From: an uncultured bacterium
GTDB taxonomy: Bacteria > Muiribacteriota > Ozemobacteria > Ozemobacterales > Ozemobacteraceae
Direction of reading: 5' to 3'
NCBI GenBank assembly: GCA_964597625.1
Contig: CAZQYQ010000001.1
Coordinates: forward strand, 1 to 56,096
DNA: 56,096 bases
A program made the translations under genes and the position numbers. Positions 11,137 to 24,482 of this stretch are shown here, piece after piece; position 1 is the first letter of the stretch, and every line of letters begins with the position of its first letter. The notes below the pieces were generated by a model. The model was not told the DNA's origin, did no database searches, and was given only the letters and a program-made list of their open reading frames with translations.

Positions 11137-11507
11137 TCCTGATTCTGAGTTCGCTTCTGATCAATGTCTTCATGGTCTGGTGGACTCCGCGCGCGCTCAG
11201 GCCTTCCGATGCCGTGCCGCTCGGGGAAGTCGTCATCGATACAACCTCCGACTCTCAGGGCAGAATCTGGGGAGAGCCGATTGCGGAACCCGGCAGGCAG
11301 GCCCCTTCGAAAGTGAGCATCAATACCGCTGATCGTGCGGCACTGCTGGCATGCCCCGGTATCGGGCCTGTGACGGCGGATCGCATTCTTGCCGCACGGC
11401 GCGAGGGCGCATTCACGAGCTGGGAGGATTTTCAGCGACGCGTTCCGGGCTTCGGTGCAGCGAAAATGGAGCGGCTCCGCCTCGAAGGCGTGCGGCTCGA
11501 CCCGTGA
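11088..11507 (+). CDS. comEA: ComEA-family helix-hairpin-helix DNA receptor
   Basis: ATG 11088 is preceded by GGGGGAAGG. N-terminal TM (FLILILSSLLINVFMVWW) and a C-terminal HhH module INTADRAALLACPGIGPVTADRILAARREGAFTSWEDFQRRVPGFG. Confidence 0.75.
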   Translation: MEGVSEPTAGDRRQFLILILSSLLINVFMVWWTPRALRPSDAVPLGEVVIDTTSDSQGRIWGEPIAEPGRQAPSKVSINTADRAALLACPGIGPVTADRILAARREGAFTSWEDFQRRVPGFGAAKMERLRLEGVRLDP

Positions 11508-13735
11508 CCGGCATGGGACGCCAGCATCCGAACGATCCCGCCGCGCCGGTTCCGCCGTCTCAGGCTGTTGCCAGAAGCGGTTTCGAGCTGGAAGTCCTGC
11601 CCGCGTTCGTCGCCGGATTCATCATCGGGCTGCAGCTGGCAGGCTTTGTGCCGGCCTGGAGTGCCTGGCTGTTTCTGACCGTCGCGCTTGGCGGCGCGGC
11701 GCTGACGCTCCTGGTGCCGGTCAGAGGTCCTGAAGCCTGGCTGCCGCTCCTCGGCTGCGCGATCGCGTGCGGCGCGTTCGCGGGAACGGCCCGCATGGAA
11801 GTTCCGCCGGATGCTGCCGCCCTTGCGGCATTCAGCGGGGCCTCCGGACGGCTGACCGGCGTCTGTTCGGGTGATTTCAGACCTCTGGCGCGAGGCGGGC
11901 TGGCATTTTCCATCGACGACACGGTTTTCGAAACCGCCTCGCAGGAGATCGCCCTTTCCTGCCGCGTCAGGGTCGAGACGCGCCGCACGGGCATTCTGCC
12001 CGAGCCGGGGCAGCGCTATACGGCAACAGGCACGTTCACGGCGGGCGACGGGAACCGCAGGCCGGCGGGGTTCAGGGCACCGGAGATTGCGGAAGCTTCA
12101 GGCTCGGGCCACATCGGGCCTTCGATCGGGTATCTTCAGCAACAGACCCGTGACGCCATTGCCCGGCTGCTTCCCGACAGGCATCAGGGCTTCATGCAGG
12201 GGCTCCTGCTGGGCGACACGAGCCGGCTGAGCCGCGATGACCGTCGGATGTTCAGAGACACCGGGGTTTCCCACCTGCTCGCGATCTCCGGACAGCATCT
12301 GCTCGTTCTGGCGCTTGTCCTGACGGCCATGCTCCGCTGGAGCGGTATTCCGCCGGTCTCACGTGCGCTGCTCACGATCGCGGTCCTGGTCGGGTATGCG
12401 ATGATGACTTCCGGCCAGCCTTCCGTCTGGCGGGCGGTGGTCATGTATATCGCCGTTACCGTAGCCGCATTCCTGGAAGCCGATCCGGGGCCGGTCAGGC
12501 CGCTGGCGGCCGCGGCTCTCGCGGTCCTCTTCTGGAACCCGGCATGGGTGCACAACGTGGGCTTTCAGTTGAGTTTCCTGGCTGTTCTCGGAATCGTTCT
12601 GGGCAGGCCGCCGCTCGAGTCGCTGTTTCTGCGTTTTCGCCTGCCGAAGCTGCTTGCGAGGTATCTCGCCGTTTCGACGGCAGCAAGTTTTGCGACCATG
12701 CCGCTTGCGGCCTGGCATTTCGGCATGATTCCCCTGGCGGCCTTCATTGTTAATCCGCTTGTGGTCTGGTCGTTCGATTTCATTCTTCCGATCGGCATGC
12801 TCACGGTCATCCTGAGCGGCGTCTGGTTCAAAGCCGCCGTGTTTCTTGCCGCCGGTCTCGCGCTGGCACTGGACGGTTTCATGGCGACGATCGAGCTCGG
12901 CGCGGCATTCCCGATCTTTCTGGTTGATGTCGGAAGCGTTCCGGCAACCATTGTAGCCGGCTTTTACGCATCAATGCTCGGTCTTCTTGCCTGGTGGCAT
13001 CAGGCCAGCGCCGCATCGGCTCCGCTGACGGCGCACCCGCTTCCCAAAGCGGCGCAGCCCGGCCCCGCATCCGGGAAACTCGTTCAGCGGCCATCCTCAC
13101 GGATTGAGATGTACGGGCTGAACCCCCTGACGACCGACAGCCTTCTGGAAGCGATCGATGCCCAGCTGGCGGTTTTCCCGAAGCGGCCCCTGAGGCAGCA
13201 GCGTGGAAAAATCGAGACCGTAACGTTTCCGGTGCAGGGGTTGAGCCCGGAAAGCCAGAATATCTTCTACCGGATCGATGATCTGACGCTCGAAACCCTG
13301 CGCGGACATCCCGACCGGCTGCTCGAAGCCCAGGTCTACTGCATGGCGCTTCTTGGCAACGAGTTGCTTTTCCGGCTGGCGGTACGACTGGAGCCACCCC
13401 CGACCCCTGCCGACATCAAGGTGAAGAAAACGGTAAAAAACCGGTATTTTGCGCTGGCCCTGGCAGCAGAAGCGTTTTTCGACTCGCCTCTCCCCGGGCG
13501 GGCAACGCGCGCAACGCTTGCGATGCTGATTCCAACGTCTTACGAACTCCACAAAACCGGCTGCGAAATGCTTTCCCGATTCACCAGGGTGAGAGATGAA
13601 GACAGCAGGATTGCCCACATGGAATACCGTCAGAAGATTCTCGACTGGTGCCGGGCCCTCATAGAAGCCCTGGCCACCGAGGAAAAGCGAAGAAAGCCCG
13701 GTACCGGCAAGGGAGATCCGTTTGAACCCGTCTGA
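11504..13735 (+). CDS. comEC: ComEC/Rec2 DNA internalisation channel (no metallo-beta-lactamase domain)
   Basis: GTG 11504 overlaps the comEA stop (GTGA); ATG 11513 is an alternative. Polytopic membrane core with the competence-domain signature GVSHLLAISGQHLLVLALVL. The C-terminal ~245 aa are soluble and lack HxHxDH. Confidence 0.8.
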   Translation: MTGMGRQHPNDPAAPVPPSQAVARSGFELEVLPAFVAGFIIGLQLAGFVPAWSAWLFLTVALGGAALTLLVPVRGPEAWLPLLGCAIACGAFAGTARMEVPPDAAALAAFSGASGRLTGVCSGDFRPLARGGLAFSIDDTVFETASQEIALSCRVRVETRRTGILPEPGQRYTATGTFTAGDGNRRPAGFRAPEIAEASGSGHIGPSIGYLQQQTRDAIARLLPDRHQGFMQGLLLGDTSRLSRDDRRMFRDTGVSHLLAISGQHLLVLALVLTAMLRWSGIPPVSRALLTIAVLVGYAMMTSGQPSVWRAVVMYIAVTVAAFLEADPGPVRPLAAAALAVLFWNPAWVHNVGFQLSFLAVLGIVLGRPPLESLFLRFRLPKLLARYLAVSTAASFATMPLAAWHFGMIPLAAFIVNPLVVWSFDFILPIGMLTVILSGVWFKAAVFLAAGLALALDGFMATIELGAAFPIFLVDVGSVPATIVAGFYASMLGLLAWWHQASAASAPLTAHPLPKAAQPGPASGKLVQRPSSRIEMYGLNPLTTDSLLEAIDAQLAVFPKRPLRQQRGKIETVTFPVQGLSPESQNIFYRIDDLTLETLRGHPDRLLEAQVYCMALLGNELLFRLAVRLEPPPTPADIKVKKTVKNRYFALALAAEAFFDSPLPGRATRATLAMLIPTSYELHKTGCEMLSRFTRVRDEDSRIAHMEYRQKILDWCRALIEALATEEKRRKPGTGKGDPFEPV

Positions 13736-13748
13736 GCATCCCTCGGCC

Positions 13749-14543
13749 ATGAGGCGGCTGGCGGCGCACGGCATCATTCCGCTCGCGGTGCTGATCGTCG
13801 TCGTCGCGGTTCCCCAGATGTCAGAATCCAGGCGCCAGGCAGTTGCTGTCGTCATAAGTATCATCGGTTTTGCTCTTCTCTTCCTCAGCGGACGACGGCC
13901 GGAGTCTGGCGATCCTCTGTGGAAAGCCGTCCGGAGTTTTGCCGCCATCGGAACGACGCTGGTGCTGCTGATGCATCTCCCCATCGGAAGTCTGCTCTGC
14001 AAGCCCCTTCTGCTGCCCCACTCCACGGAAAATGCCGATGCGATATTCGTGCTGGCATCGGGAGTCTCGGAAACGGGCGAATACACGTATTCCGGCCTTC
14101 AGCGCATCATGCATGGCGAGGCCCTGTTGCGTGCAGGGCGGGCACCCCGGCTTTTTATCAGCACTGGGGATCCGACCGTTGACAGGCCGATTCCCGAAGC
14201 CGGCTGGGTTGCTTCGTTCACATCGCTTTTACACCTGCCGGGGAACGCGTTCGAAATTCTGACCGGGGACATCACCACGACGCGCACCGAGTCGTTGAAG
14301 GCAGCGCAGATTCTGCTTCCACGCGGAATACGGCGCATTCTTCTCGTGACGAACGGACCGCATATCACCCGCGCCAAAGCGGTGTTTGAAGCCGCGGGCT
14401 TTGAGGTGCTGCCGGCTCCGGTTCAATCGGAGGCAACGATTCGAAACGCGTGCGATTCCGACCTCGGGCTTTTCCGCTATGCGATGCACGAGTGGCTTGG
14501 AATGGCTCTCTACAGGATGCGCGGCGATTTCCAGAAAAAATAG
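13749..14543 (+). CDS. DUF218 (YdcF/SanA/ElyC-like) membrane-anchored protein
   Basis: Two N-terminal TMs, then DAIFVLASGVSETGEYTYSGLQRIMHGEALLRAGRAPRLFISTG and ILLVTNGPHITRAKAVFEAAGFEV, typical of DUF218. I prefer ATG 13749 over the TTG at 13722. Confidence 0.75.
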   Translation: MRRLAAHGIIPLAVLIVVVAVPQMSESRRQAVAVVISIIGFALLFLSGRRPESGDPLWKAVRSFAAIGTTLVLLMHLPIGSLLCKPLLLPHSTENADAIFVLASGVSETGEYTYSGLQRIMHGEALLRAGRAPRLFISTGDPTVDRPIPEAGWVASFTSLLHLPGNAFEILTGDITTTRTESLKAAQILLPRGIRRILLVTNGPHITRAKAVFEAAGFEVLPAPVQSEATIRNACDSDLGLFRYAMHEWLGMALYRMRGDFQKK

Positions 14544-14646
14544 CCACCCCGGTTTGACCTTTTTTTCCCCAACCGGCTTTCTCGTTTGATGTATGGGTGG
14601 ATGCAGGTATTGACGCATCGATTCCACACACACCGAGGAGGCAATC

Positions 14647-15072
14647 ATGGTGGCGTTGAACAAGGTGATTCTGGCAGGCAATCTGACTCGTGATCCGCAG
14701 TCCCGAAACACACGCACCGGGAAAAGCCGGGCCGGTCTCATTGTCGCGGTCGATCGTTTCCGGAGCGGCCAGGACGGGCAGAACAGCCGCGAAACCAGCT
14801 TCATCACCGTCACGACCTGGAATACGACCGCAGAAAACTGCCTCACGTATCTCCGGAAAGGGATGCCGGTGCTGATCGAGGGGCAGCTCAGAGTCTCGCG
14901 GTTCACCGGAAGCGACGGCCAGCAGAAGTTTTATACCGAGGTCGTCGCGGATCACGTGACCTTCCTCTCTCACGGGGGTGAAGCCGCTCATGATGCAGGG
15001 CAGCCCGTGACGCCGGAGGGCCGGAGGGAGGTCCCCGACACTCCGTCTCCGCCGCCGGAATGCTCCTTCTGA
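14647..15072 (+). CDS. ssb: single-stranded DNA-binding protein
   Basis: GAGGAGG RBS. The OB fold reads LNKVILAGNLTRDPQSRNTRTGKSRAGLIVAV...SFITVTTWNTTAENCLTYLRKGMPVLIEGQLRVSRF...YTEVVADHVTFL, followed by a disordered tail ending PPPECSF. Confidence 0.9.
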   Translation: MVALNKVILAGNLTRDPQSRNTRTGKSRAGLIVAVDRFRSGQDGQNSRETSFITVTTWNTTAENCLTYLRKGMPVLIEGQLRVSRFTGSDGQQKFYTEVVADHVTFLSHGGEAAHDAGQPVTPEGRREVPDTPSPPPECSF

Positions 15073-15123
15073 CCATGGTGACCACCGCGGCGCGGGGGTG
15101 TATGATGCTCTCCGGTATATCTG

Positions 15124-18081
15124 ATGAGTATCTCGATGTCGTTCCACCCACTTCCTCGCCGCGGGGCCCTTCCGACGTATCTCCTCGCGGTGATCCTGAC
15201 GACGCTGACACTGCTCTCTATTTATATAGGTTGGTATAATTCAGCCGTTCAGGAATACGAGTCACGGAAGCGCAGACAGTCGGAACGCGCCGGCCAGATT
15301 CTCGATGCCATGTCGCTCAACTGGCGTCTTCGCGACCAGATATCGATTCTCGGTTCAAGACTCTCAGCAAGACTGGAAGATCTGGGCGCAGGCCACGGCG
15401 TCACGCGTCCCTGGGCTTCCATCTCAACCGGTATCTGGCGCGACTTCCCCGGTGCGCGCGTCTGGCTGTTCGAGTATACGGCGTCATCGGCCGGCTCGCT
15501 GCCGCGGGTGATTCATGCGCCGTTCGGGGGCAATATCGGCCGCCAGGCGATGGCACAGGTTTTCAATCATCTGGTGATCCGCCAGGACAACAGGCAGTCA
15601 TCTGATTCTGATGCAAGGCGAATCACCAAGCTCATGCTCTCCCTGTTCGGCGCAGGCATGGAGCCGACACCTCTCGCTCAAAGCCTTCGAGGGATTCCTG
15701 TGCGTATCACAAACGATGCAAACCAGCAGTATCTCATCTGGGATGTCATCACCGACGGAACCCGGCCGCTGGCAGGGTTCATCGCCCTCATTCCGGAAAA
15801 CACCGGCACAAAGCGCATTGCCATGAAGATTTCTGCCGCTGCCGTGCGGGACCACGATGTCAGGCTGAACGGCTTTATCCGATGCCATCCGTCACAAATC
15901 GGGGATCTGCTTCCGTCGGGTGTCCTGCGTTCTCACGCGTTCATCGCCTGGTGCAGGCGCTTCAGGAGTATCCCGTTCCGGGAACGGGAACGGTCCCTGC
16001 CCCCCTGGGGTGAATCGATCGGAACCTATCGCATCTATACAAAATCGATTCTGAACTCCCCACATCTTGCCGCCGTGTTCATGCCCGCGGAAAAGCCGAC
16101 GAAACTTCCCCTGCCGCTGAAAGCCGCGGGCGCTGTCTTGCTGACCGGCTGGGGAATCGTCCTGATACGGGGTCTGCTGTTGAACCAGTGGCCTGCCATT
16201 TCCCTGGCATGGCGGTTTCTGGGTCTGTATGCGCTCGCATGCGCCCTGCCGCTTTCGGTGGCTGTCCAGACCTTTTCAGGATACATCGGGGAAAGGCGTG
16301 AAGCTCTTCTGCAGGGTCTCGAACGGAGATTGTCACATACGCTCGCCACGATTGACCAGAGCAAAGACCAGCTCCAGAGCCGATATCTGGCGGCATTTAC
16401 CCGCATTCCCTCAAATCAGAAATGGCGGGATGCCATCCAGCGGGATGGGGTAAAAGCGCCCGCCCTGGATGAAATGATGATGCGTGAATTCTCGAGCGCA
16501 TCGCCGTCGCTTCCTCTTTCGGCGCTGTTTCTTTTTGACATGGCCGGCAACGAACTGGCGACGTATAGCGCGACTCTCACTCCGGAGCAGATCGACGGCC
16601 TTCATAAATATTTTAGAATATATTTAATCAACACCCTGCGAAAGCGGTATGAAATCACCCATCGAATGCCGCCTCCGGGCAAAAATCCCCTGTCCGATCG
16701 GGATATTGCATTCTGGGAGGCGTTCAATCAGGTTTCCTATACGAACATGATGCAGCTGGCGGAACTGCGCCGCAGTGTCCCGGATTTCATCCGGGCCGGC
16801 AACAGCTGGATGGTCAAGCTTCACGATTTCATCCAGATCGGAAACAGCCAACAGATCGCATTTCTGATCGCCTGGCATGACCGGCTTCTCGACAAGGAAA
16901 TCATTCGAAACGCGATGATCGAGTTCACCCGCATGAATCCCGACGGGGAATTCATGGCTTACAGAAAGGAACGGGACAGACTCATCCCCCTCATGCCTGT
17001 TTCCAGAGCGCAGAGACTCATCCTGGAACAGCCGGCATTCGCGGCAATGAGACGCGGCGGCGCCTATACGGCAAGAACATCCGGGCCTGACGACTGGTTC
17101 ATTCTGGCAAGGCCATCCGGAACCATGCGTGACATCTGGCTTGCAGCAGGCACTCCGATCACGTCCGAGCTGGCGGATTTCGAGGCCCGCCGCAACAGGC
17201 TTCTGATGCTTCTCTGGCTCAGTCTGTCGATGGTCATTCTTCTTGGCGCCGTCACGGCCTATCGTGTCGTTCCTTCGATCGTGTCCGTCAGAAGTGGGTT
17301 GGCAACGATAGCCGCAGGCAACCTCGATGTCACCGTGAAGCTCGACCGGCCCGACGAACTGGGAATACTGACGCAGGCATTCGATGAAATGACCAAGGGC
17401 CTGCGCCAGAGACAGCGGCTTTCAACCCTCGTCTCGGGCGTCGCGCTTCAGGCGATTTCAGGCGGAACGACAGCCGCCCCCCGTCGTGGCCCCGGAGTCG
17501 TTCTCGTGTCAGACATCAGGTCCTTTACGACTCTCTGCGAAAACCAGCCTGCAGCCATGATTACCGGGATGCTGAACAAGCATTTCGAGGTCATGGCCGA
17601 CATCATTCACCTGCACGGCGGACGTGTGGACAGGTTCATCGGCGATGCCATCCAGGCTGTTTTCGAACCCACCGGGCAGGCGGATCCGGGCCTGAATGAA
17701 CGGGCGGTCAAGGCCGGTCTCGATATGCTGATGGGGCTGAAAACCATCAATGCGGAACGACGAAAGACAGGCCTGTTCACCTATCTCATGGGAGTCGGCT
17801 TGAGCAGCGGGAATCTGCTTTTTGGTGGAATCGGCGATCCAGAGCTCCGATTCGAAATCACGATGCTGGGCGATGCCGTCGCGGCCGCCACCGGACTGGA
17901 GTCTCTCGCCAAATTCGCCCCCGGCATACCGCTTGTCATGGCGCCAAACCTGGTCGAGAGCGGGGGGATATTTTCGGATTCGGTTGTTCCGCTCGCCGGA
18001 CATGAGAGTTGCGCGGCTGTTTTCAAAGCAAAGCTCGATCTTGAATCGTTCCTGTCGGCAGACCGAGGGGAGCGAACATGA
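15124..18081 (+). CDS. membrane sensor-HAMP-class III nucleotide cyclase, 'C1-like' half (metal Asp pair present, Asn/Arg absent)
   Basis: Predicted TMs at about aa 17-38, 334-353, 358-384 and 692-714 flank two ~300-aa extracytoplasmic regions. HAMP (ATIAAGNLDVTVKLDRPDELGILTQAFDEMTKGL). Cyclase homology domain VVLVSDIRSFTTL...GGRVDRFIGDAIQAVFE...ITMLGDAVAAATGLE. Confidence 0.85.
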   Translation: MSISMSFHPLPRRGALPTYLLAVILTTLTLLSIYIGWYNSAVQEYESRKRRQSERAGQILDAMSLNWRLRDQISILGSRLSARLEDLGAGHGVTRPWASISTGIWRDFPGARVWLFEYTASSAGSLPRVIHAPFGGNIGRQAMAQVFNHLVIRQDNRQSSDSDARRITKLMLSLFGAGMEPTPLAQSLRGIPVRITNDANQQYLIWDVITDGTRPLAGFIALIPENTGTKRIAMKISAAAVRDHDVRLNGFIRCHPSQIGDLLPSGVLRSHAFIAWCRRFRSIPFRERERSLPPWGESIGTYRIYTKSILNSPHLAAVFMPAEKPTKLPLPLKAAGAVLLTGWGIVLIRGLLLNQWPAISLAWRFLGLYALACALPLSVAVQTFSGYIGERREALLQGLERRLSHTLATIDQSKDQLQSRYLAAFTRIPSNQKWRDAIQRDGVKAPALDEMMMREFSSASPSLPLSALFLFDMAGNELATYSATLTPEQIDGLHKYFRIYLINTLRKRYEITHRMPPPGKNPLSDRDIAFWEAFNQVSYTNMMQLAELRRSVPDFIRAGNSWMVKLHDFIQIGNSQQIAFLIAWHDRLLDKEIIRNAMIEFTRMNPDGEFMAYRKERDRLIPLMPVSRAQRLILEQPAFAAMRRGGAYTARTSGPDDWFILARPSGTMRDIWLAAGTPITSELADFEARRNRLLMLLWLSLSMVILLGAVTAYRVVPSIVSVRSGLATIAAGNLDVTVKLDRPDELGILTQAFDEMTKGLRQRQRLSTLVSGVALQAISGGTTAAPRRGPGVVLVSDIRSFTTLCENQPAAMITGMLNKHFEVMADIIHLHGGRVDRFIGDAIQAVFEPTGQADPGLNERAVKAGLDMLMGLKTINAERRKTGLFTYLMGVGLSSGNLLFGGIGDPELRFEITMLGDAVAAATGLESLAKFAPGIPLVMAPNLVESGGIFSDSVVPLAGHESCAAVFKAKLDLESFLSADRGERT

Positions 18082-21000
18082 AGAACATGCACAAAAGGCA
18101 TCGTCAGAGCACCACGTCCTCCCTGAGCACGTCCCCCGGGGGGAGTGCGGAACATGGCGCCCCGTCGGCGGGCCGGCCGCGTCCATGGCTGTTCTTTCTG
18201 TTTATCGTCGGCTCTGTCATCTTACTTCTGCCGCCGTGGCTGATCCATACAACCCTGTCTGAAACCGCTGATTCGGAGCTTCACAGACGGCAGCAGGCCA
18301 GTTCAGAGCTTCTCGAAACGTCCATGAATCTGGCTCGGTATCAGGATCTGGGCCGGCTGCTCATCGTGGAGCAACTCGAAGAGGAAGCGTTGCGCTTCGC
18401 GGCGCGGGTTTCGAATCAAAGCGATATCTCTCTTGCATCTGAAACGGCCCTGATTGCAACGCGCCTGAAGAAAGGCGGACTCACTCCCACCCTGATCATA
18501 ACCCTCCGGAAATCCGCGGGAAACGCCCGCCCATCGCCAGGCGCAACGGGTGTATGCGGAGCCCATTCCCAGGCCGAGTTTGAATTCCTCCATCAGTTTC
18601 TTGATCTGAACACGCAGGCTCTCACAGGCTCCGTTCCAGCAACCGAGGCCAGGAACATCTCCGAATCCGTCACCCGGTATCTCGGTTCGATTCAGACGCT
18701 CTCCTACTTCAGTCACGAAATGCGCGGAATTGCAGCCCAAATCCAGTTTCGACATGAAGATGCAATCCTTTTCTGGATGCCGCTTCTCAATCCACGAAAA
18801 GCAGCCGGCATTCTCCGGTCACCGGTCACCGCCGATCTGTTCAACCCCGACTCTTCGACTCTTTGCGCGGAAACATGGAAAGAACTGGTTTCAGGCGGCA
18901 TCCTCTTCATCGTGCCCCCGCCGGCTTCCGGGCAAAAAGGCATCAGAACGACAATCCGCCGATACGCCGCACAAGGGATCCGTCTTGCGTTCATTCCGGA
19001 AGATGGACGCGGAATGATAGCACATAACGCATGGTATACATCGCCCTTGAAATCATGTCTCCAGGGCTCACCCCCTCCCTGGAACTGGGTCATCAGGCGG
19101 GGGACCGCTTTTGTCGGAAGACGGTATGAGATCATCGGCGCCCTCCAATTACCCGCAGAGCCTTCAGGCGGAGGAACACGGGCTTTCCTGCTCCGGGCGC
19201 TCTGCTGGGCGGCAGCACTCGCCGGCCTGATCACATGGTTCATTTCCGTTTTTCGTGGAAGAGCCCTCGCAACCGGCCTCGGCAACCAGCTCACCGCAGG
19301 CTTTCTGCTGGCTGCACTGTTTCCGTTGACAACGACATTTCTTATTATCGAGCCGTATGCAACCGAGCGTTACGAGGTGCGGGCACAGGAAATCCGTGCC
19401 GGCCTGCGCAGCACGATCAAGCTGCTCGAGCTGCAAAGCCTCTCCCACAGACCACGCCTGTGGCATGTGATGTCGCAGATGTTCTATGATCCGGCCTTTC
19501 TCGAAGCGGCCCGGCGGGATGCAGCCGGCACCCGGAGTGGAGCGGAACAGGCTCTGCAAAAGCAGCTGCATGACAAGTTCATGTATCTGTATGAAAAGCC
19601 CCTCGACGTCTCGCTGCGCAAGTTGATCATCGCCGGCATGGGAAACTATGTGCGCGACCAGGCGAGACCGGGAGATTCCGGCGGCAGCACAAGCATGCTT
19701 CCGCAGCTTTTGAGCCTGATCGCCAACGAAGCCATTTCAGCCCGGGGCGGAGTCAATTCCTCATTCGCAAAAGAAGCGTTGGCAATGGATAATGAGCGGG
19801 GATCCGCTGCAAAAACCAAGCGGGAAATGCTCTGGGATGTCGGGAGAGAGATGTTTCTTGCCATCCTCGGCCCCGAATCCTTTTTCGATTGGCTGAACGG
19901 CAAGAACGAACCTCTGCTCATCGAAGTCGGCCTCGGCATGGTCATGATCTACGAGATTCTTCTGCCGCAAGGCCCACAGCCTGAATTTCTGCTCACCATC
20001 CTCCTCAAGGCCGAGTTTCACGAGAACAAAGCGATGGCGCGCACGCTTTCCGGAAGATGGCGTGACGGGCCGGTCTTTGTCTTCCAACGGGATTTTCTGG
20101 GTGAGCCGAGTCAGCCGGAATCAGGCGAACGGCATCCGTTCCTGCGTCGTATCGCAAGGCAGATAGATGCCGCGGCAAAGCCATTGAGCCTGCGTCTGAG
20201 CGACGGAAATACCAGCTGGCTGATCGAGGGGGCTCCGGGCGAACATTCGCGCCAGTTCATCTTCACGGCCGTTGCCGACGAGGCCCCGCTGCGCGCTGAA
20301 ACAGAATCCATCAAAAGAAGACTTACGGCAATGCTGCTGATTGCCGCGCTGATTACCCTGCTGATCGCCGCAAGCGCGACGCAGGACGTCGTTTCCCCGA
20401 TCAACCGTCTGATTGAAGGCATTCGCGCCATCAGCGCCGGAACGTATTCCTATCGGGTGGACGTGGACCGCTCGGATGAGCTCGGAGAACTTGCCGGCGC
20501 TTTCAACACGATGGCCGGTGGTCTCGAGGAACGAAATATTCTTAGTCATATGGTTTCTGGTTCAGCGCTGAATGCGACGACATCCCAGGACTACGAAGCG
20601 AAAGCACGCGAAGGACGGCGCCACACGGTGATCGTCTGTTTCGTTTCATTCGTGGGTGCGGAAGCCGAAATGGCCGCCATGACGCCGGAAGAAGCGCTAT
20701 CCTTTCTGAACCGGCAGGTTGTGGCCGCCTGCCGGATTCTGCACTCCGCCGGCGCCGATATCGACAAGCTGCTGGGGCCAAAAATCCTGGCGCTTTTTCC
20801 GCCGGAACTCGGCATGGTCGCGGTGGAAACCGCCCGTGCGCTGCAGACTGCGCACGGTGACGGGCAGCTTGATTTGAGGCCAGCCATCGGCCTGACAAGA
20901 GGGCCTGTCATTTCCGGAATCCTGGGCTCCGGAGATCGCCGCGATCATACGGTGATCGGCGATACGGTGAATCTTGCCGCGCGCGCCGCATCGATTGCCG

Positions 21001-21173
21001 AAAAACTTGAGCCGATCGCGGTGGTTCTCGATGATGCCCTTCGCACGCACATCGGGGATATCGGGGAATTCGAATCGCTCGGAGAAACGTTTGTGAAGGG
21101 CAAAACGAAACCTGTTCGGCTCGTAAGACTTCTCGACCGGCAGGAGAAAAAAGACCCGGGAGGCAGTGCATGA
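18078..21173 (+). CDS. paralogous membrane sensor-HAMP-class III cyclase-homology protein, 'C2-like' half (metal Asp lost; Lys/Thr/Asn/Arg present)
   Basis: ATGA overlap with the upstream cyclase and a GAGGGGAG RBS. Same 4-TM double-sensor layout. HAMP (IEGIRAISAGTYSYRVDVDRSDELGELAGAFNTMAGGL). Cyclase domain VIVCFVSFVGAE...DKLLGPKILALF...HTVIGDTVNLAARAAS...FESLGETFVKGKTKPVRLVRLL. Confidence 0.8.
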   Translation: MKNMHKRHRQSTTSSLSTSPGGSAEHGAPSAGRPRPWLFFLFIVGSVILLLPPWLIHTTLSETADSELHRRQQASSELLETSMNLARYQDLGRLLIVEQLEEEALRFAARVSNQSDISLASETALIATRLKKGGLTPTLIITLRKSAGNARPSPGATGVCGAHSQAEFEFLHQFLDLNTQALTGSVPATEARNISESVTRYLGSIQTLSYFSHEMRGIAAQIQFRHEDAILFWMPLLNPRKAAGILRSPVTADLFNPDSSTLCAETWKELVSGGILFIVPPPASGQKGIRTTIRRYAAQGIRLAFIPEDGRGMIAHNAWYTSPLKSCLQGSPPPWNWVIRRGTAFVGRRYEIIGALQLPAEPSGGGTRAFLLRALCWAAALAGLITWFISVFRGRALATGLGNQLTAGFLLAALFPLTTTFLIIEPYATERYEVRAQEIRAGLRSTIKLLELQSLSHRPRLWHVMSQMFYDPAFLEAARRDAAGTRSGAEQALQKQLHDKFMYLYEKPLDVSLRKLIIAGMGNYVRDQARPGDSGGSTSMLPQLLSLIANEAISARGGVNSSFAKEALAMDNERGSAAKTKREMLWDVGREMFLAILGPESFFDWLNGKNEPLLIEVGLGMVMIYEILLPQGPQPEFLLTILLKAEFHENKAMARTLSGRWRDGPVFVFQRDFLGEPSQPESGERHPFLRRIARQIDAAAKPLSLRLSDGNTSWLIEGAPGEHSRQFIFTAVADEAPLRAETESIKRRLTAMLLIAALITLLIAASATQDVVSPINRLIEGIRAISAGTYSYRVDVDRSDELGELAGAFNTMAGGLEERNILSHMVSGSALNATTSQDYEAKAREGRRHTVIVCFVSFVGAEAEMAAMTPEEALSFLNRQVVAACRILHSAGADIDKLLGPKILALFPPELGMVAVETARALQTAHGDGQLDLRPAIGLTRGPVISGILGSGDRRDHTVIGDTVNLAARAASIAEKLEPIAVVLDDALRTHIGDIGEFESLGETFVKGKTKPVRLVRLLDRQEKKDPGGSA

Positions 21174-22279
21174 CAACACCGCAACGGAGTATTCCGCCGT
21201 GTCTTCCACCGGCACGCCCCATCCCGCCAAAACAGCTTTTTCAACGCCTCGAAGACCTGGGATACAAAGGGCAGGATGATGCCCGGCGGGCTCTCTGCCT
21301 GGCCGCATACAGACATCTGCGGAGGTTCGAGCTGCTTTCCCACCGGTCATGCCGCCCGGAGGAGCTGCCGCCCAAGGCGAATCTTCTGCTGATGGGCCCC
21401 ACCGGGTGTGGAAAGACATTTCTCGTGGAACAGCTGTTCGGAAAACTGCTGATGCTGCCAACGGTTCTGATCGACATCACCGGCTTTTCTGAAACGGGCT
21501 ATGTCGGTGATTCGGTCAGGACAGTTCTGACGCGCATGCTCCTGGCGGCAAAAGACCGGCCTGAACTCGCCAGGCACGGAGTTGTCTGCCTCGACGAGTT
21601 CGACAAGCTGGCCGGTTCACATTCCAACATCCGTTTCGACGGCGCCGGCACCACGAAGGACGTCACCGGGTATGGAGTCCAGAAAGAGCTGCTGAAAATG
21701 ATCGAGGGCTGCACGATGGATGTTCCGCTCGGCTTCACTGAATCGATTTATACCGAGCGCACGGAACTGGACACGCGGGAAATCCTCTTCGTCGCCAGCG
21801 GGGCATTTTCAGGTTTCAAGGGCGCCGCCCGCTTCACGTCCGAAGGCTCCGAATCCATCGGATTCAATCGGACCCCTTTCCGGAAAGAGGCGATAGCCTA
21901 CCGGCTGGCCGAAGAGGAGTCGGAAAACATCGCCGCATTCCAGCAATACGGGTTTCTGCCCGAACTGATCGGAAGATTCGGCCGGATCGTCGCCATGCCG
22001 TCGCTCGACCGTGACACCCTGCGCAGAATCCTGACCGAGTCGCTGCTCCCACGATATAAGCACGAGTTCGCGCTTGAAGGGATCAAGCTGGAAATCGACG
22101 ATGCCGTTCTCGAAAAAATTATATCTGACGCAATAAAACGGCAGATCGGTGCGCGCGGCCTCGGCAGTCGGCTGACTTCCATTCTCGAACAGGCGGCCTT
22201 TTCCGGTTTCGGAGGGGAGAGCGGAACGATATCCGTGACGATGCAGAAAGGCCGGCCAACGGCGATTCATCAGCCGTGA
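21170..22279 (+). CDS. ClpX-family AAA+ unfoldase paralog lacking the N-terminal zinc-binding domain
   Basis: ATGA overlap with the upstream gene. Walker A LLLMGPTGCGKT, pore-1 loop ETGYVGDSV, Walker B VVCLDEFDKL, an IGF-type loop (SESIGFNRTP) and sensor-2 GARGLGS. There is no CxxC...CxxC ribbon at the N-terminus. 369 aa. Confidence 0.85.
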   Translation: MTTPQRSIPPCLPPARPIPPKQLFQRLEDLGYKGQDDARRALCLAAYRHLRRFELLSHRSCRPEELPPKANLLLMGPTGCGKTFLVEQLFGKLLMLPTVLIDITGFSETGYVGDSVRTVLTRMLLAAKDRPELARHGVVCLDEFDKLAGSHSNIRFDGAGTTKDVTGYGVQKELLKMIEGCTMDVPLGFTESIYTERTELDTREILFVASGAFSGFKGAARFTSEGSESIGFNRTPFRKEAIAYRLAEEESENIAAFQQYGFLPELIGRFGRIVAMPSLDRDTLRRILTESLLPRYKHEFALEGIKLEIDDAVLEKIISDAIKRQIGARGLGSRLTSILEQAAFSGFGGESGTISVTMQKGRPTAIHQP

Positions 22280-22385
22280 CATGTCGGGGCCGGCTGATCG
22301 AATCATGGACAAATGGGTAATCCCGTGTATATTGTACAGAAGATAGTAGATGAGAGATCACATTTCGTGATTCAAGTGAGGATCA

Positions 22386-23675
22386 ATGCGGCCACTTCCG
22401 CTGATTAGCGGCAATCCGGCCCTGGTGGCTGAAGTCGAGCGGCTGATGCCCGCATCGGGCAGCCAGGGATTTCGTCTGGCTGTCGTCTCCGACTCCCAGA
22501 CCGCCCGTGAGTTCCTGACGCTCGAGATGCCCGAACTTGTTCTGCTCGATTTTTCCCGCCCGGAACTCAAGCCGTTCGACCTCCTGGATTTCATTCTCAG
22601 CGATCCCTGGCTTGCGCCAGGCGGAATCATCGCGTTCCATGATAACGACCAGGAAATCCGGCAGCTGGAATCGATCCGCGAGGCGAACTTCATCGTCATC
22701 GTCCACGAGCGCAACCTCGAGGATTACCTGCCACGCATCATGAGCATCATTCATCGCAACCGGCGGATTCTCTTCCAGCACAGCCTCGGCGGAGGACTCA
22801 TCACGAACATTTCGGGCTCGTTCAAACTTGAGAATCACATTATCGAGGCCCGCTGCTACGCGAACCTGCTGTGTAATTTTCTTTTCTCGGGCGGGCGCAT
22901 CGATCTCGAAGGGAAAAGCAATCTCTGCTTTGCCCTGTTTGAACTGCTTGTAAATGCGATCGAACACGGCAACTGCGGGATCTCGTTCGAAGAGAAGAAC
23001 AACTGGCTGGAACAGGGTGGCTCGATGATCGATCTGATCGATCGGCGCAGTAAAGAACCCGGCATCTCCTCGAGGCGGGTCACGTTTGAATACAATATCT
23101 GCCAGGCCGGCTCGCGATTCCTGATCTCCGATGAAGGCTCAGGCTTCAACTGGAAACAGTTTCTTGACCGCGGCACAGATGAAGCCCAGTTCAGACTGCA
23201 CGGCCGGGGCATTCTCCTGGCAAGCCGTTTTACGCAGAACATGAACTATACCGAGTCCGGCACCTCGGTCACCTTCGGAATAAGCCACACGACAAATGCC
23301 GCGCCGCTGCCGCCCGCTCTGTTCACCAACATCGAACCGCTGCACGTCTCTCAGGGGGAATTACTGTTTCGAGAGGGTGATCCCAGCACCTACTTGTATT
23401 ACATCGTGAAGGGCCGCTACGACGTGATGATGAATGGGTATCTCGTATCGACGCTTTCGCCCGATGACATGTTTCTCGGCGAGATGTCGTTTCTGCTCGG
23501 GAAAAACCGTTCGGCATCGATCAAAGCTCAGACCGACGGGGCGCTGATCCGCATTTCAAAAAAAGAGTTCATCGAAGCCGTGAGACGCCGCCCGCATTAT
23601 GCCCTGCTGCTCTCCCGGCTTCTTGCTCAGCGGCTGCAGAGATCCAATATCCGGAATACGGTATCACGAACCTGA
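22386..23675 (+). CDS. three-domain signalling protein: receiver-like N-domain, GHKL (RsbW/SpoIIAB-type) ATPase-like domain, C-terminal cyclic-nucleotide-binding domain
   Basis: GAGGA RBS. REC-like ...FRLAVVSDSQTAREFLTLEMPELVLLDFS... The GHKL N-box is FELLVNAIEHGN, with G-boxes SDEGSGF and HGRGILLASRF. The cNMP domain GELLFREGDPSTYLYYIVKGRY...FLGEMSFLLGKNRSASIKA carries a GE...R[ST]A phosphate-binding cassette. The 3' end overlaps the convergent gene by 12 nt. Confidence 0.8.
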   Translation: MRPLPLISGNPALVAEVERLMPASGSQGFRLAVVSDSQTAREFLTLEMPELVLLDFSRPELKPFDLLDFILSDPWLAPGGIIAFHDNDQEIRQLESIREANFIVIVHERNLEDYLPRIMSIIHRNRRILFQHSLGGGLITNISGSFKLENHIIEARCYANLLCNFLFSGGRIDLEGKSNLCFALFELLVNAIEHGNCGISFEEKNNWLEQGGSMIDLIDRRSKEPGISSRRVTFEYNICQAGSRFLISDEGSGFNWKQFLDRGTDEAQFRLHGRGILLASRFTQNMNYTESGTSVTFGISHTTNAAPLPPALFTNIEPLHVSQGELLFREGDPSTYLYYIVKGRYDVMMNGYLVSTLSPDDMFLGEMSFLLGKNRSASIKAQTDGALIRISKKEFIEAVRRRPHYALLLSRLLAQRLQRSNIRNTVSRT

Positions 23676-24467
23676 GTGGTTCTTCTTCAATTCGAATTTC
23701 AGCATGACAGGGTCTGAAGCGGTATCCGGAATGAAGTCCGTCACTTCCCTCCCGGCGCGGTCGAGTGAGGCTTTTTCGCGGATGAGAAGCTGCTTTTTCA
23801 ACAGGTTCATCACATCCTTGGCCTCGTGCTCGGTGCATGCGGCGCCGAATGCCGCCAGCCGCGAAGCCCAGGGGGCATCGCGCACAAAGCGTTCGCCGGA
23901 AGCCAGCAGCATCAGAATTGCCGCCGCAGGCCTTGCGAGAGGCGATGATCTGACGGCTTTCTCAGGATGCAGACCATACCAGATCAGTCTGACGGCCGCT
24001 TCAGGAAACAGATGCAGCATCCGCCGGACTCGGGCGCCGAACGTCAGCCGGACCTCCTTGAGATGAGTCTCGGGATCTTCTTCCGCACTGCTCGCCCGCA
24101 AACGGGCGAGAAACACCCAGCCTGCAATCAGCGCATCGCCCAGCAGCAGCATCCAGATGATGAACGGCATGGCTGGTCTGAGACCGAGCAGCGCCGGAAT
24201 GACCCAGGCACCGGCGTCGGTACGGTCAAGAAATCCGAACAGAAGTCCGATTTCGATCACGCAATCGATCACCAGGTAACCGAGCATCGAGACGAGAGCA
24301 AGCACCAGAAGATGGCCCAGGACGATCCCGATGCCGAGGAGGAGCATGACCCGGCACTCTTTCAGATCCGGCGGGCGCCCTGTTTCGAAGACGTCCCGAT
24401 CGAGATAGCGCGCAAGCGCATCGAGACGATCACGCTTCAGAATCGGATCATCCTGCCATCCGGCCAC
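23664..24467 (-). CDS. hypothetical polytopic membrane protein
   Basis: Sits immediately downstream of the M20 peptidase gene. I prefer GTG 24467, 8 nt after GGGAGG, over the TTG at 24473. It has 4-5 hydrophobic helices (VMLLLGIGIVLGHLLVLALVSMLGYLVI..., PFIIWMLLLGDALIAGWVFLA). No family recognised. Confidence 0.5.
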   Translation of the reverse strand: MAGWQDDPILKRDRLDALARYLDRDVFETGRPPDLKECRVMLLLGIGIVLGHLLVLALVSMLGYLVIDCVIEIGLLFGFLDRTDAGAWVIPALLGLRPAMPFIIWMLLLGDALIAGWVFLARLRASSAEEDPETHLKEVRLTFGARVRRMLHLFPEAAVRLIWYGLHPEKAVRSSPLARPAAAILMLLASGERFVRDAPWASRLAAFGAACTEHEAKDVMNLLKKQLLIREKASLDRAGREVTDFIPDTASDPVMLKFELKKNHSGS

Positions 24468-24482
24468 AAACAATACCTCCCG

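Follow-up and report, generated by a model that had tools for sequence, protein, structure and literature searches.

Do two neighbouring genes, each encoding a nucleotide cyclase from which a different part of the active site has gone, specify two spent enzymes or the two halves of one? The question is raised by a pair of open reading frames (ORF1 and ORF2) on a contig from an uncultured bacterium of the Ozemobacteraceae (GenBank assembly GCA_964597625.1, contig CAZQYQ010000001.1, positions 1 to 56,096); this whole stretch of 56,096 nucleotides is referred to below as the window. The names carried by identical and orthologous proteins likewise point to Candidatus Ozemobacteraceae, within the Riflebacteria. 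In class III cyclases the active sites lie at the dimer interface, where one chain contributes a pair of metal-binding Asp residues and a phosphate loop, and the other chain a Lys, an Asp or Thr, an Asn, an Arg and a terminal Lys (PMC9552081, PMC8815786). ORF1 retains the first of these sets and ORF2 the second, and a sequence-only reading of the window had proposed that the two proteins are obligate partners sharing one active site. Having compared the pair with solved cyclases, with its orthologues and with a family of fused relatives, we think it quite probable that ORF1 and ORF2 together make up a single membrane receptor adenylyl cyclase, each as one subunit, with a single composite site.

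Gene pair and catalytic residues

The two genes, and the parts of their products on which the argument turns, are placed in the window as follows.

15124..18081, forward strand: ORF1, A-type (C1-like) receptor cyclase subunit, 985 amino acids (ORF list, translation, Pfam)
15235..17199, forward strand: ORF1 sensor, with outside region 1 at residues 38-332, a hairpin of transmembrane (TM) segments TM2 and TM3 at 333-385, and outside region 2 at 386-692 (hydropathy)
17263..17418, forward strand: ORF1 HAMP domain, about residues 714-765 (PF00672, 35.1 bits, residues 721-762)
17485..17958, forward strand: ORF1 cyclase domain, C1-like (solved-cyclase alignments, orthologue columns, codon check)
17512-17514, forward strand: ORF1 metal Asp D797 (alignment, codon check)
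17644-17646, forward strand: ORF1 metal Asp D841 (alignment, codon check)
18078..18081, forward strand: ATGA, overlap of the ORF1 stop and the ORF2 start (direct sequence reading)
18078..21173, forward strand: ORF2, B-type (C2-like) receptor cyclase subunit, 1031 amino acids (ORF list, translation, Pfam)
18252..20321, forward strand: ORF2 sensor, with outside region 1 at residues 59-373, a TM hairpin at 374-425 and outside region 2 at 426-748 (hydropathy)
20388..20531, forward strand: ORF2 HAMP domain, residues 771-818 (PF00672, 52.2 bits)
20622..21131, forward strand: ORF2 cyclase domain, C2-like (bPAC and OaPAC alignments from single sequence and profile, orthologue columns, codon check)
20766-20768, forward strand: ORF2 K897 (alignment, codon check)
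20949-20951, forward strand: ORF2 T958 (alignment, codon check)
20970-20972, forward strand: ORF2 N965 (alignment, codon check)
20982-20984, forward strand: ORF2 R969 (alignment, codon check)
21102-21104, forward strand: ORF2 K1009 of the VKGK motif (alignment, codon check)

The extents of both ORFs and the ATGA that they share at 18078-18081 agree with the ORF list and the sequence as the sequence-only reading had given them, and the common layout that it described (TM segment, outside region, hairpin, outside region, TM segment, HAMP, cyclase) was recovered by a hydropathy scan and Pfam. Each protein has four TM segments, at about residues 15-37, 333-353, 361-383 and 693-713 in ORF1 and 38-58, 374-392, 406-424 and 749-767 in ORF2, and two outward regions of ~300 residues, and the last TM segment leads into the HAMP domain. 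Both HAMP and Guanylate_cyc (PF00211) score above the gathering threshold in both proteins; for PF00211 the scores are 36.7 bits in ORF1 and 27.5 bits in ORF2 (cut-off 21.9), and the ORF2 match is confined to the C-terminal half of the domain. By these scores and by alignment to solved structures, both domains belong to class III. A second ATGA overlap, at 21170-21173, joins the stop of ORF2 to the start of the next gene.

In BLASTP the two proteins are similar (28% identity, E 3e-17) only from the last TM helix as far as the cyclase domain, and homology of the sensor parts is detectable only at the level of profiles. Since the profiles of the two orthologue families align over 734 columns with a probability of 99.2% (hhalign), we regard ORF1 and ORF2, on sequence grounds, as old paralogues along most of their length. 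ORF2 also carries a Ser/Gly/Pro/Arg-rich N-terminal extension of ~35 residues ahead of its first TM segment (residues 1-37, window 18078-18188), which it shares with a 75%-identical relative, P0040, and which the other orthologues lack; the extension resembles the linker that would be expected between the halves of the fused forms described below.

Catalytic residues were mapped by phmmer against the solved cyclases OaPAC (5x4t), bPAC (5mbg) and Cya2 (2w01). For ORF2 a PDB search with a profile of 11 ORF2 orthologues was used as well, because the first Asp falls in a weaker stretch of the single-sequence alignment. The cytosolic part of ORF1 aligns to Cya2 with an E-value of 4e-20 and to OaPAC with 1.7e-19; it keeps both metal-binding Asp, in the contexts SD797I and FIGD841, together with the phosphate-loop residues F801-T802. 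The Lys position is occupied by R837 and T913 is retained, within the GDxVNxAAR motif A920 and G924 stand in for Asn and Arg, and there is no terminal VKGK lysine. With the Asp pair and phosphate loop kept and Asn and Arg gone, ORF1 has the composition of a C1-type domain.

The pattern in ORF2 is the reverse. Aligned to bPAC and OaPAC, it keeps K897 and the full HT958VIGDTVN965LAAR969, with S857 and P901 at the positions of the metal Asp and A861-E862 at those of the phosphate loop. The family profile matches bPAC over the whole domain (E 2.6e-19, profile positions 811-976) and sets an invariant Ser opposite the first Asp and Pro or Gln opposite the second; the strand around Ser857 is devoid of any Asp, and three residues past Ser857 stands a Gly that corresponds to the conserved one in DIxGFT. 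With Lys, Thr, Asn, Arg and the VKGK lysine in place and both metal Asp missing, the domain has a C2-type composition. In addition, K897 and T958 align to the Lys and Thr of bPAC and OaPAC, the pairing of Thr with Lys that defines class IIIb, and by sequence both domains are class IIIb-like, with bPAC, OaPAC, CyaB and Cya2 as their nearest solved relatives.

The canonical set of six residues (two Asp, Lys, Asp or Thr, Asn, Arg) is thus complete in neither chain, and neither has the make-up of a homodimeric cyclase. Each residue named by the sequence-only reading (D797, D841, R837, A920 and G924 in ORF1; S857, P901, K897, T958, N965 and R969 in ORF2) was found where it had been placed, the numbering proving exact for every position when codons were checked, and profile and structure alignments brought out no hidden canonical residue behind the reciprocal degeneracy. 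The same reading had the two cyclase domains aligning without gaps, which is incorrect: there is a 4-residue indel before strand 1, and ORF2 is ~14 residues short in the middle of the domain.

Conservation in orthologous pairs and fused relatives

A word-indexed search of 5.8 billion proteins yielded 8 full-length orthologues of ORF1 (58-66% identity) and 10 of ORF2 (58-75% identity); those that are named all come from the Ozemobacteraceae, or, in the list for ORF2, from the Ozemobacteraceae or Riflebacteria. With each GTDB species represented by a single genome, a scan located the genes in 4 genomes, again all Ozemobacteraceae or Riflebacteria. At every one of nine distinct Ozemobacteraceae loci an ORF1-type gene is followed directly by an ORF2-type gene, with a 4-bp overlap that reads ATGA in eight cases and GTGA in one, and in most of them a GGAGG-like stretch lies a few bases 5' of the overlap. 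The complementary residue pattern is likewise found in all nine pairs. Some positions of the second, symmetry-related pocket (the pseudo-site) have drifted: among the orthologues residue 913 of ORF1 is T, S or V and residue 924 is G or A, and residue 901 of ORF2 is P or Q. Neighbouring pairs and conserved complementary substitutions had both been put forward as tests by the sequence-only reading, and at the level of sequence every prediction that it offered as support was borne out.

The distribution of conserved columns follows the division of labour that this pattern implies. The most conserved part of ORF1 is the N-terminal half of the cyclase domain, which bears the Asp residues (87% mean identity, 72% invariant columns), and its least conserved part is the C-terminal tail (48% and 5%); in ORF2 the most conserved part is the C-terminal half of the domain, which bears Asn and Arg (85% mean identity, 65% invariant columns), and the terminal strands with VKGK reach 72% mean identity with 49% invariant columns. 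By these measures constraint is asymmetric in the direction expected for two complementary half-sites.

Beyond these nine loci, evidence on separate pairs comes from one locus, L011, of a distant member of the Riflebacteria. Its A-type gene, P0058, was the only family member to come from a third word-indexed search (15-sequence alignment), and is followed after a spacer of 108 bp by a B-type gene of 1004 codons. In the B-type product the first Asp is replaced by Gly, whereas Lys, Thr, Asn, Arg and VKGK are retained, and each partner matches only its own sensor hidden Markov model (HMM), the A-type that of ORF1 and the B-type that of ORF2.

The wider family was collected with a profile of the ORF1 sensor only (residues 40-694, without HAMP or cyclase domain) in an exhaustive search of 1.84 billion representative proteins, which gave 125 representative clusters (E below 1e-30 for 63). 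Proteins of roughly 1700-2400 residues make up about half of these. Pfam detects two HAMP and two cyclase stretches in each of four of the long relatives, and 59 of them carry a pair of cyclase domains by a family HMM. The architecture of the family can be written as four TM segments, two outside regions, HAMP and cyclase, all taken twice; it comprises at least 59 clusters at 50% identity, lying within P0057-P0180 and seen in this search in Riflebacteria only, with MBF0498831.1, MFZ2956276.1, NLI77705.1, NLI77505.1 and HEY9070976.1 as examples, and the accession numbers suggest that there are several paralogues per genome.

When all domains were aligned to the family HMM, the fused proteins repeated the pattern of the pairs. 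The first domain is always C1-like, with both Asp and the FT loop in 59/59, and the Asn/Arg pair and the terminal KGK in 0/59. The second is C2-like in 58/59: the first Asp is missing in 58 of the 59, Lys, Asn and Arg are present in all 59, Thr in 58 and KGK in 57. In 17 second domains an Asp stands one residue ahead of the conserved Phe, a non-canonical position. An alignment of 50 fused proteins has a mean column identity of 24%, and the few residues that are invariant include exactly one composite site, made up of Asp, Arg-x-Phe-Thr and Gly-Asp from domain 1 and of Lys, IGDxVNxxAR and KGK from domain 2.

The sensors tell the same story. The ORF1-sensor HMM matches the N-terminal sensor in 58/58 fused proteins, and the ORF2-sensor HMM matches the C-terminal sensor in 49/58, the remainder matching neither and none matching the ORF1-sensor HMM. 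As the two models match the N- and C-terminal halves respectively, and never the reverse, the fused proteins are, by sequence, an ORF1-like and an ORF2-like protein end to end, in the gene order of the window. Of single-domain form there are 36 representatives with a near-complete cyclase match, all of A-type, with both Asp in 36/36 and the Asn/Arg pair missing in 35/36; their lengths differ, and a number of them are likely to be fragments. All named members of the family, fused or single, are proteins from Riflebacteria or Ozemobacteraceae metagenome-assembled genomes. In a rough neighbour-joining tree of the A-type units, ORF1 of the window falls in a clade of mostly split forms with one fused member inside it and fused clades adjoining, so that split and fused forms are interleaved; the tree does not polarise fusion versus fission.

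A structure model of the fused relative P0122, calculated with AlphaFold2 for residues 745-1925 from a 50-sequence alignment and spanning the protein from the first cyclase domain to the C-terminus, reached a mean predicted local distance difference test score (pLDDT) of 81 and a predicted TM-score (pTM) of 0.59. Its best matches in the PDB are the full-length mammalian adenylyl cyclases AC5, AC9 and AC8, over ~1200 columns, with E-values down to 3.3e-14 and collinear from C1 to C2; next come the single-domain enzymes OaPAC, CyaB, Cya2 and CyaC.

Taken over nine of nine pairs, one distant pair and 59 fused relatives, the pattern exceeds what chance would give. It also bears on the possibility that both proteins are dead pseudo-cyclases, their domains serving only for dimerisation or nucleotide binding and making no cyclic nucleotide. 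Such a reading draws on the incomplete residue set in either chain, and on the fact that Pfam sees only half of the ORF2 domain and that precomputed Pfam annotation misses the domain in most orthologues; a dead domain, however, has no reason to retain exactly the complementary residues of one site, and here D/D/FT in the A-type and K/T/N/R/KGK in the B-type are invariant or nearly so across the 9 pairs and 59 fused proteins at a column identity of ~24%, and the catalytic halves are the best conserved part of each protein. We therefore consider that both proteins are dead to be very unlikely.

A homodimer of ORF1, acting as a weak or unconventional enzyme that ORF2 tunes or inhibits as a regulatory partner, seems to us only slightly less improbable. 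ORF1 does keep D797 and D841 along with the FT loop; its R837 is invariant, and residue 913 is a Thr. But that Thr is variable (T/S/V), the Asn, Arg and terminal Lys are missing from 9/9 orthologues of ORF1, from the first domain of 59/59 fused proteins and from 35/36 A-type proteins of single form, and loss of residues of this kind nearly abolishes activity in class III enzymes such as Rv1625c; moreover, an ORF2 that was merely a regulator would not need invariant K/T/N/R.

The heterodimer is by far the best explanation, because the reciprocal pattern is fixed across a deep divergence, the genes overlap and relatives are fused in the same order; the fusion of the halves in 59 relatives is classical evidence that the products act together. 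The gene arrangement, the residue pattern and its conservation, and the existence of the fused relatives are direct observations, and from them the following mechanism can be proposed. The two chains would be co-produced from the overlapping genes and associate in parallel by way of their TM helices and of a HAMP bundle to which both contribute, upon which the cyclase domains would form the usual head-to-tail dimer. ORF1 would provide D797 and D841 for the metals and the phosphate loop F801-T802, and ORF2 the base-recognising K897 and T958, the transition-state residues N965 and R969, and the terminal K1009. The symmetry-related pocket, with S857 and P901 from ORF2 and R837, T913, A920 and G924 from ORF1, would bind no metal and is predicted to be a dead or regulatory pseudo-site. 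Only the combination ORF1:ORF2 is expected to give a full site, since a homodimer of ORF1 would be without transition-state stabilisation and one of ORF2 without metal binding, and there would be exactly one competent site, since the half of the catalytic machinery that is missing differs between the chains. With two outside regions per chain and all four non-identical, two sensor halves would then govern one catalytic centre.

The Lys/Thr pair of ORF2 makes adenosine triphosphate (ATP) the likely substrate and cyclic AMP (cAMP) the predicted product, and we consider the composite site to be probably ATP-specific; the cAMP would most likely be read by a kinase-like protein with a cyclic nucleoside monophosphate (cNMP) binding domain, encoded downstream. 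That the heterodimer is real and makes cyclic GMP (cGMP) or another cyclic mononucleotide instead of cAMP is an unlikely outcome: the best single-sequence PDB match of ORF1 is a guanylyl cyclase, Cya2 (2w01), the downstream cNMP domain gives no hint of its ligand, and there are weak generic matches to models of Pycsar cyclases. On the other hand, K897 and T958 form the pair found in bPAC, OaPAC and CyaC, ATP-specific class IIIb enzymes and the nearest solved relatives of ORF2, and in the second domains of the fused proteins the Lys is kept in 59/59 and the Thr in 58/59.

Several points weigh against a receptor adenylyl cyclase with one composite site. Global TM-scores of the P0122 model against the mammalian cyclases are low, at 0.3-0.4, a result of membrane and outside parts unlike those of the mammalian proteins. 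The second Asp position of the fused second domains is often Asp or Glu, so that the pseudo-site may be less degenerate in some relatives, and the second site may be not fully dead across the family, though by sequence it is dead in the window (P901). A Thr at the base position of ORF1 and its invariant Arg at the Lys position could allow some weak homodimer chemistry. The link to the cNMP gene is one of synteny within a single family and is missing at L011, and all family members come from uncultured, metagenome-assembled genomes.

Comparison with known cyclases

The sequence-only reading had likened the arrangement to the C1/C2 domains of mammalian membrane adenylyl cyclases; this stands for the way the enzyme is predicted to work and fails for family membership, given the class IIIb-like domains and unrelated membrane parts. 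As in mammalian AC1-9, the Asp pair would come from one domain and Lys, Asp/Thr, Asn and Arg from the other, giving one site and one degenerate pseudo-site, and as in the fused relatives the mammalian enzymes have C1 first and C2 second, each behind its own membrane module. Unlike them, the halves in the window are separate polypeptides; each has 4 TM segments with two outside regions and a HAMP domain, where the animal enzymes have 6-TM bundles; Lys is paired with Thr in the manner of class IIIb and not with Asp as in class IIIa; and there is no G-protein or forskolin context here. Hydropathy and the Thr at the base position alike place ORF1 and ORF2 outside the mammalian type, defined by class IIIa domains and two 6-TM bundles. 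Since chains, membrane modules, class and regulatory context all differ, the resemblance, as judged from sequence, is most likely one of parallel evolution.

Soluble guanylyl cyclase alpha/beta, a eukaryotic obligate heterodimer of two gene products, resembles the pair in being made of two separately encoded paralogous chains with complementary residues, one site and one pseudo-site; it differs in being soluble, regulated by haem and nitric oxide, specific for guanosine triphosphate (GTP), eukaryotic, and without HAMP domains or periplasmic sensors. The heterodimer concept has been reviewed (PMC8815786). In chytrids, NeoR and RGC1/RGC2 are encoded by two clustered genes and are membrane sensor-cyclases functional only as heterodimers, with one catalytic and one putative regulatory site and the metal Asp from one partner (PMC12264004, PMC8815786). 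These are eukaryotic proteins with rhodopsin sensors and GTP as substrate, and in RGC1/RGC2 all catalytic residues are kept, so that reciprocal loss does not force the pairing (PMC8815786); in the window, by contrast, both partners are degenerate.

Soluble adenylyl cyclase (sAC, ADCY10) also belongs to class IIIb, having Thr in the base position, and differs in being soluble, in having no receptor or HAMP modules and in not being split into two genes. A sAC-like enzyme with tandem domains is said to have been described from Chloroflexus by Kobayashi et al. in 2004, and may be a single-chain precedent in bacteria. In sAC, C1 and C2 lie in one chain and a regulatory pseudo-site binds bicarbonate, and a Chloroflexus enzyme is responsive to bicarbonate (PMC11006738).

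Bacterial class III cyclases linked to HAMP domains, and Rv1625c/Cya, share with the window pair a TM anchor, a transducer and a class III domain. They carry all six residues in each chain, and reviews describe bacterial class III cyclases as homodimers with two equivalent sites (PMC9552081, PMC4821796), whereas complementation here would be natural and fixed. Complementary point mutants of class III cyclases are active only as heterodimers (PMC4821796, PMC9552081); for engineered Rv1625c, the D300A and R376A mutants regain activity only in this form, the same logic as is proposed here (PMC4821796). The origin of the pseudo-heterodimeric design itself has been placed in an early eukaryote, by way of duplication and fusion (PMC9552081, PMC4821796).

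We found no natural heterodimeric class III cyclase from bacteria in open-access full texts, which does not prove that none exists, and in this literature the complementation logic is so far shown in bacteria with the engineered Rv1625c mutants only. Open-access full texts also held nothing on cyclases of Riflebacteria, and no publication on their fused cyclase family was found in the open-access literature. On balance we lean towards the view that, in these Riflebacteria-specific receptor cyclases, a eukaryote-style C1/C2 split arose independently on a class IIIb scaffold, that it exists both as a two-gene obligate heterodimer and as a fused form of ~2000 residues with 8 TM segments and four sensors, and that this is the first such natural case to be described in bacteria.

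If so, bacteria arrived independently at the C1/C2 design, and the family would offer a model for the duplication, reciprocal degeneration and fusion that lead to pseudo-heterodimeric cyclases. Its special value is that a single phylum has both the split and the fused stage; because they persist side by side, the evolutionary path can be tested among living relatives. It would also be a model for the control of one site by two non-identical receptor halves through a mixed HAMP bundle, and would bear on whether, and how, the two dissimilar membrane domains of animal cyclases act as receptors. A naturally split, mutually dependent pair could, in addition, become a two-input (AND-type) generator of cAMP.

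Sensor regions and neighbouring genes

The outside regions of ORF1 and ORF2 match no Pfam or NCBIfam model, and the sensor regions of 15 diverse relatives match no Pfam family; the sensor region is an undescribed family without a Pfam model, so far confined to an uncultured phylum. An AlphaFold2 model of residues 40-694 of ORF1 has a pLDDT of 59, and the top Foldseek matches of this low-confidence model are consistently dCache domains (Mlp37, Mlp24, KinD, Tlp3), all of them weak (E >= 3.5e-3, TM-scores ~0.3); a double-Cache ligand-binding fold for the ORF1 sensor is a weak lead only. The models suggest that the outside regions may consist of a stalk helix and PAS- or Cache-like modules. A well-predicted fused relative likewise alternates long helices with five-strand sheets.

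The genes around the pair, in the window and at other loci (L001 to L006), are the following.

11351-15072, forward strand: upstream block of ComEA-like (HHH_3), ComEC, DUF218 and SSB genes
21170..22279, forward strand: ClpX-like AAA+ ATPase, 369 amino acids, without the N-terminal zinc-binding domain (NCBIfam, Pfam)
22386..23675, forward strand: protein of 429 amino acids with a receiver-like N-terminus, HATPase_c_2 (kinase fold of RsbW/SpoIIAB type) and a cNMP-binding domain (Pfam)
23664-24473, reverse strand: ORF of 269 amino acids with several hydrophobic stretches and no Pfam match (ORF)
L001 16024-17313, L002 17127-18416, L003 13722-15011, L004 5731-7020, L006 13045-14334: cNMP orthologues
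L001 17310-18575, L002 18413-19678, L003 15008-16273, L006 14331-15596: genes for tandem-HD proteins

The protein at 22386-23675 matches Pfam cNMP_binding with 60.7 bits and HATPase_c_2 with 35.8 bits, and its phosphate-binding cassette GEMSF...RSA (Glu/Arg) is intact; the combination of receiver-like, HATPase_c_2 and cNMP-binding domains is an unusual one. An orthologue of 429 residues lies 3' of the cyclase pair at all six distinct Ozemobacteraceae loci with downstream gene tables (L004 and L005 counted once), and from its domains and position it is the protein that probably senses what the cyclase makes. At the distant locus L011 neither the cNMP gene nor the other operon neighbour (ClpX-like or HD-GYP) adjoins the pair, and the link between the cyclases and their neighbours is therefore specific to the family.

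A cyclase next to a cNMP-binding protein also recalls Pycsar anti-phage modules, in which a cyclase is combined with a cNMP-binding effector. PADLOC models for PycC match the two cyclase domains (43.7 and 30.8 bits), and effector models match the downstream cNMP domain (54.5 bits). The matches are, however, limited to the cyclase and cNMP domains, which are generic; what the downstream protein carries is a kinase-like HATPase_c_2 domain and no TIR or membrane effector, the cyclases are periplasm-sensing HAMP receptors of ~1000 residues, and the setting is one of core-genome synteny (ComEC, DUF218, SSB ... M20 peptidase) at all Ozemobacteraceae loci whose neighbours were seen. A function as such a module is extremely improbable, and we rejected membership of Pycsar, a defence system whose pyrimidine cyclase is compact and has a TIR or membrane effector as its partner.

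Two further genes vary in their association with the pair. In four loci a tandem-HD gene stands directly 3' of the cNMP gene with a 4-bp overlap; the first HD domain of its product is degenerate and the second is a canonical HD-GYP domain (HHERLDGSGYP; FHHERLDGSGYPF). No remnant of an HD-GYP gene was found in the window by tblastn, and the closest relative is also without the gene. In these two genomes the ClpX-like gene lies between ORF2 and the cNMP gene, its start overlapping the ORF2 stop (ATGA); apart from the window and its closest relative (L004/L005), no locus among L001, L002, L003 and L006 has it in this place. The HD-GYP and ClpX-like variants of the operon thus appear to be mutually exclusive. 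The ClpX-like protein scores 228.8 bits against NCBIfam ClpX, below the cut-off of 359 and over profile positions 62-381 only, matches Pfam AAA_2 and ClpB_D2-small, and retains GYVG together with an IGF-like loop; its standing as an operon partner is uncertain.

The cNMP and M20 peptidase genes are separated by 808 bp, a gap occupied by the reverse-strand ORF of 269 residues; since the corresponding gap at L004 is only 27 bp, the ORF is an insertion specific to the genome of the window. A scan for promoters and terminators, otherwise uninformative, gave weak promoter-like sites at 15078-15106 and 22306-22333. On the upstream side, the ComEA-like/ComEC/DUF218/SSB block precedes the pair in the Ozemobacteraceae loci with upstream genes seen (L001-L003, L006), and in the window 51 bp separate the end of the SSB gene from the start of ORF1.

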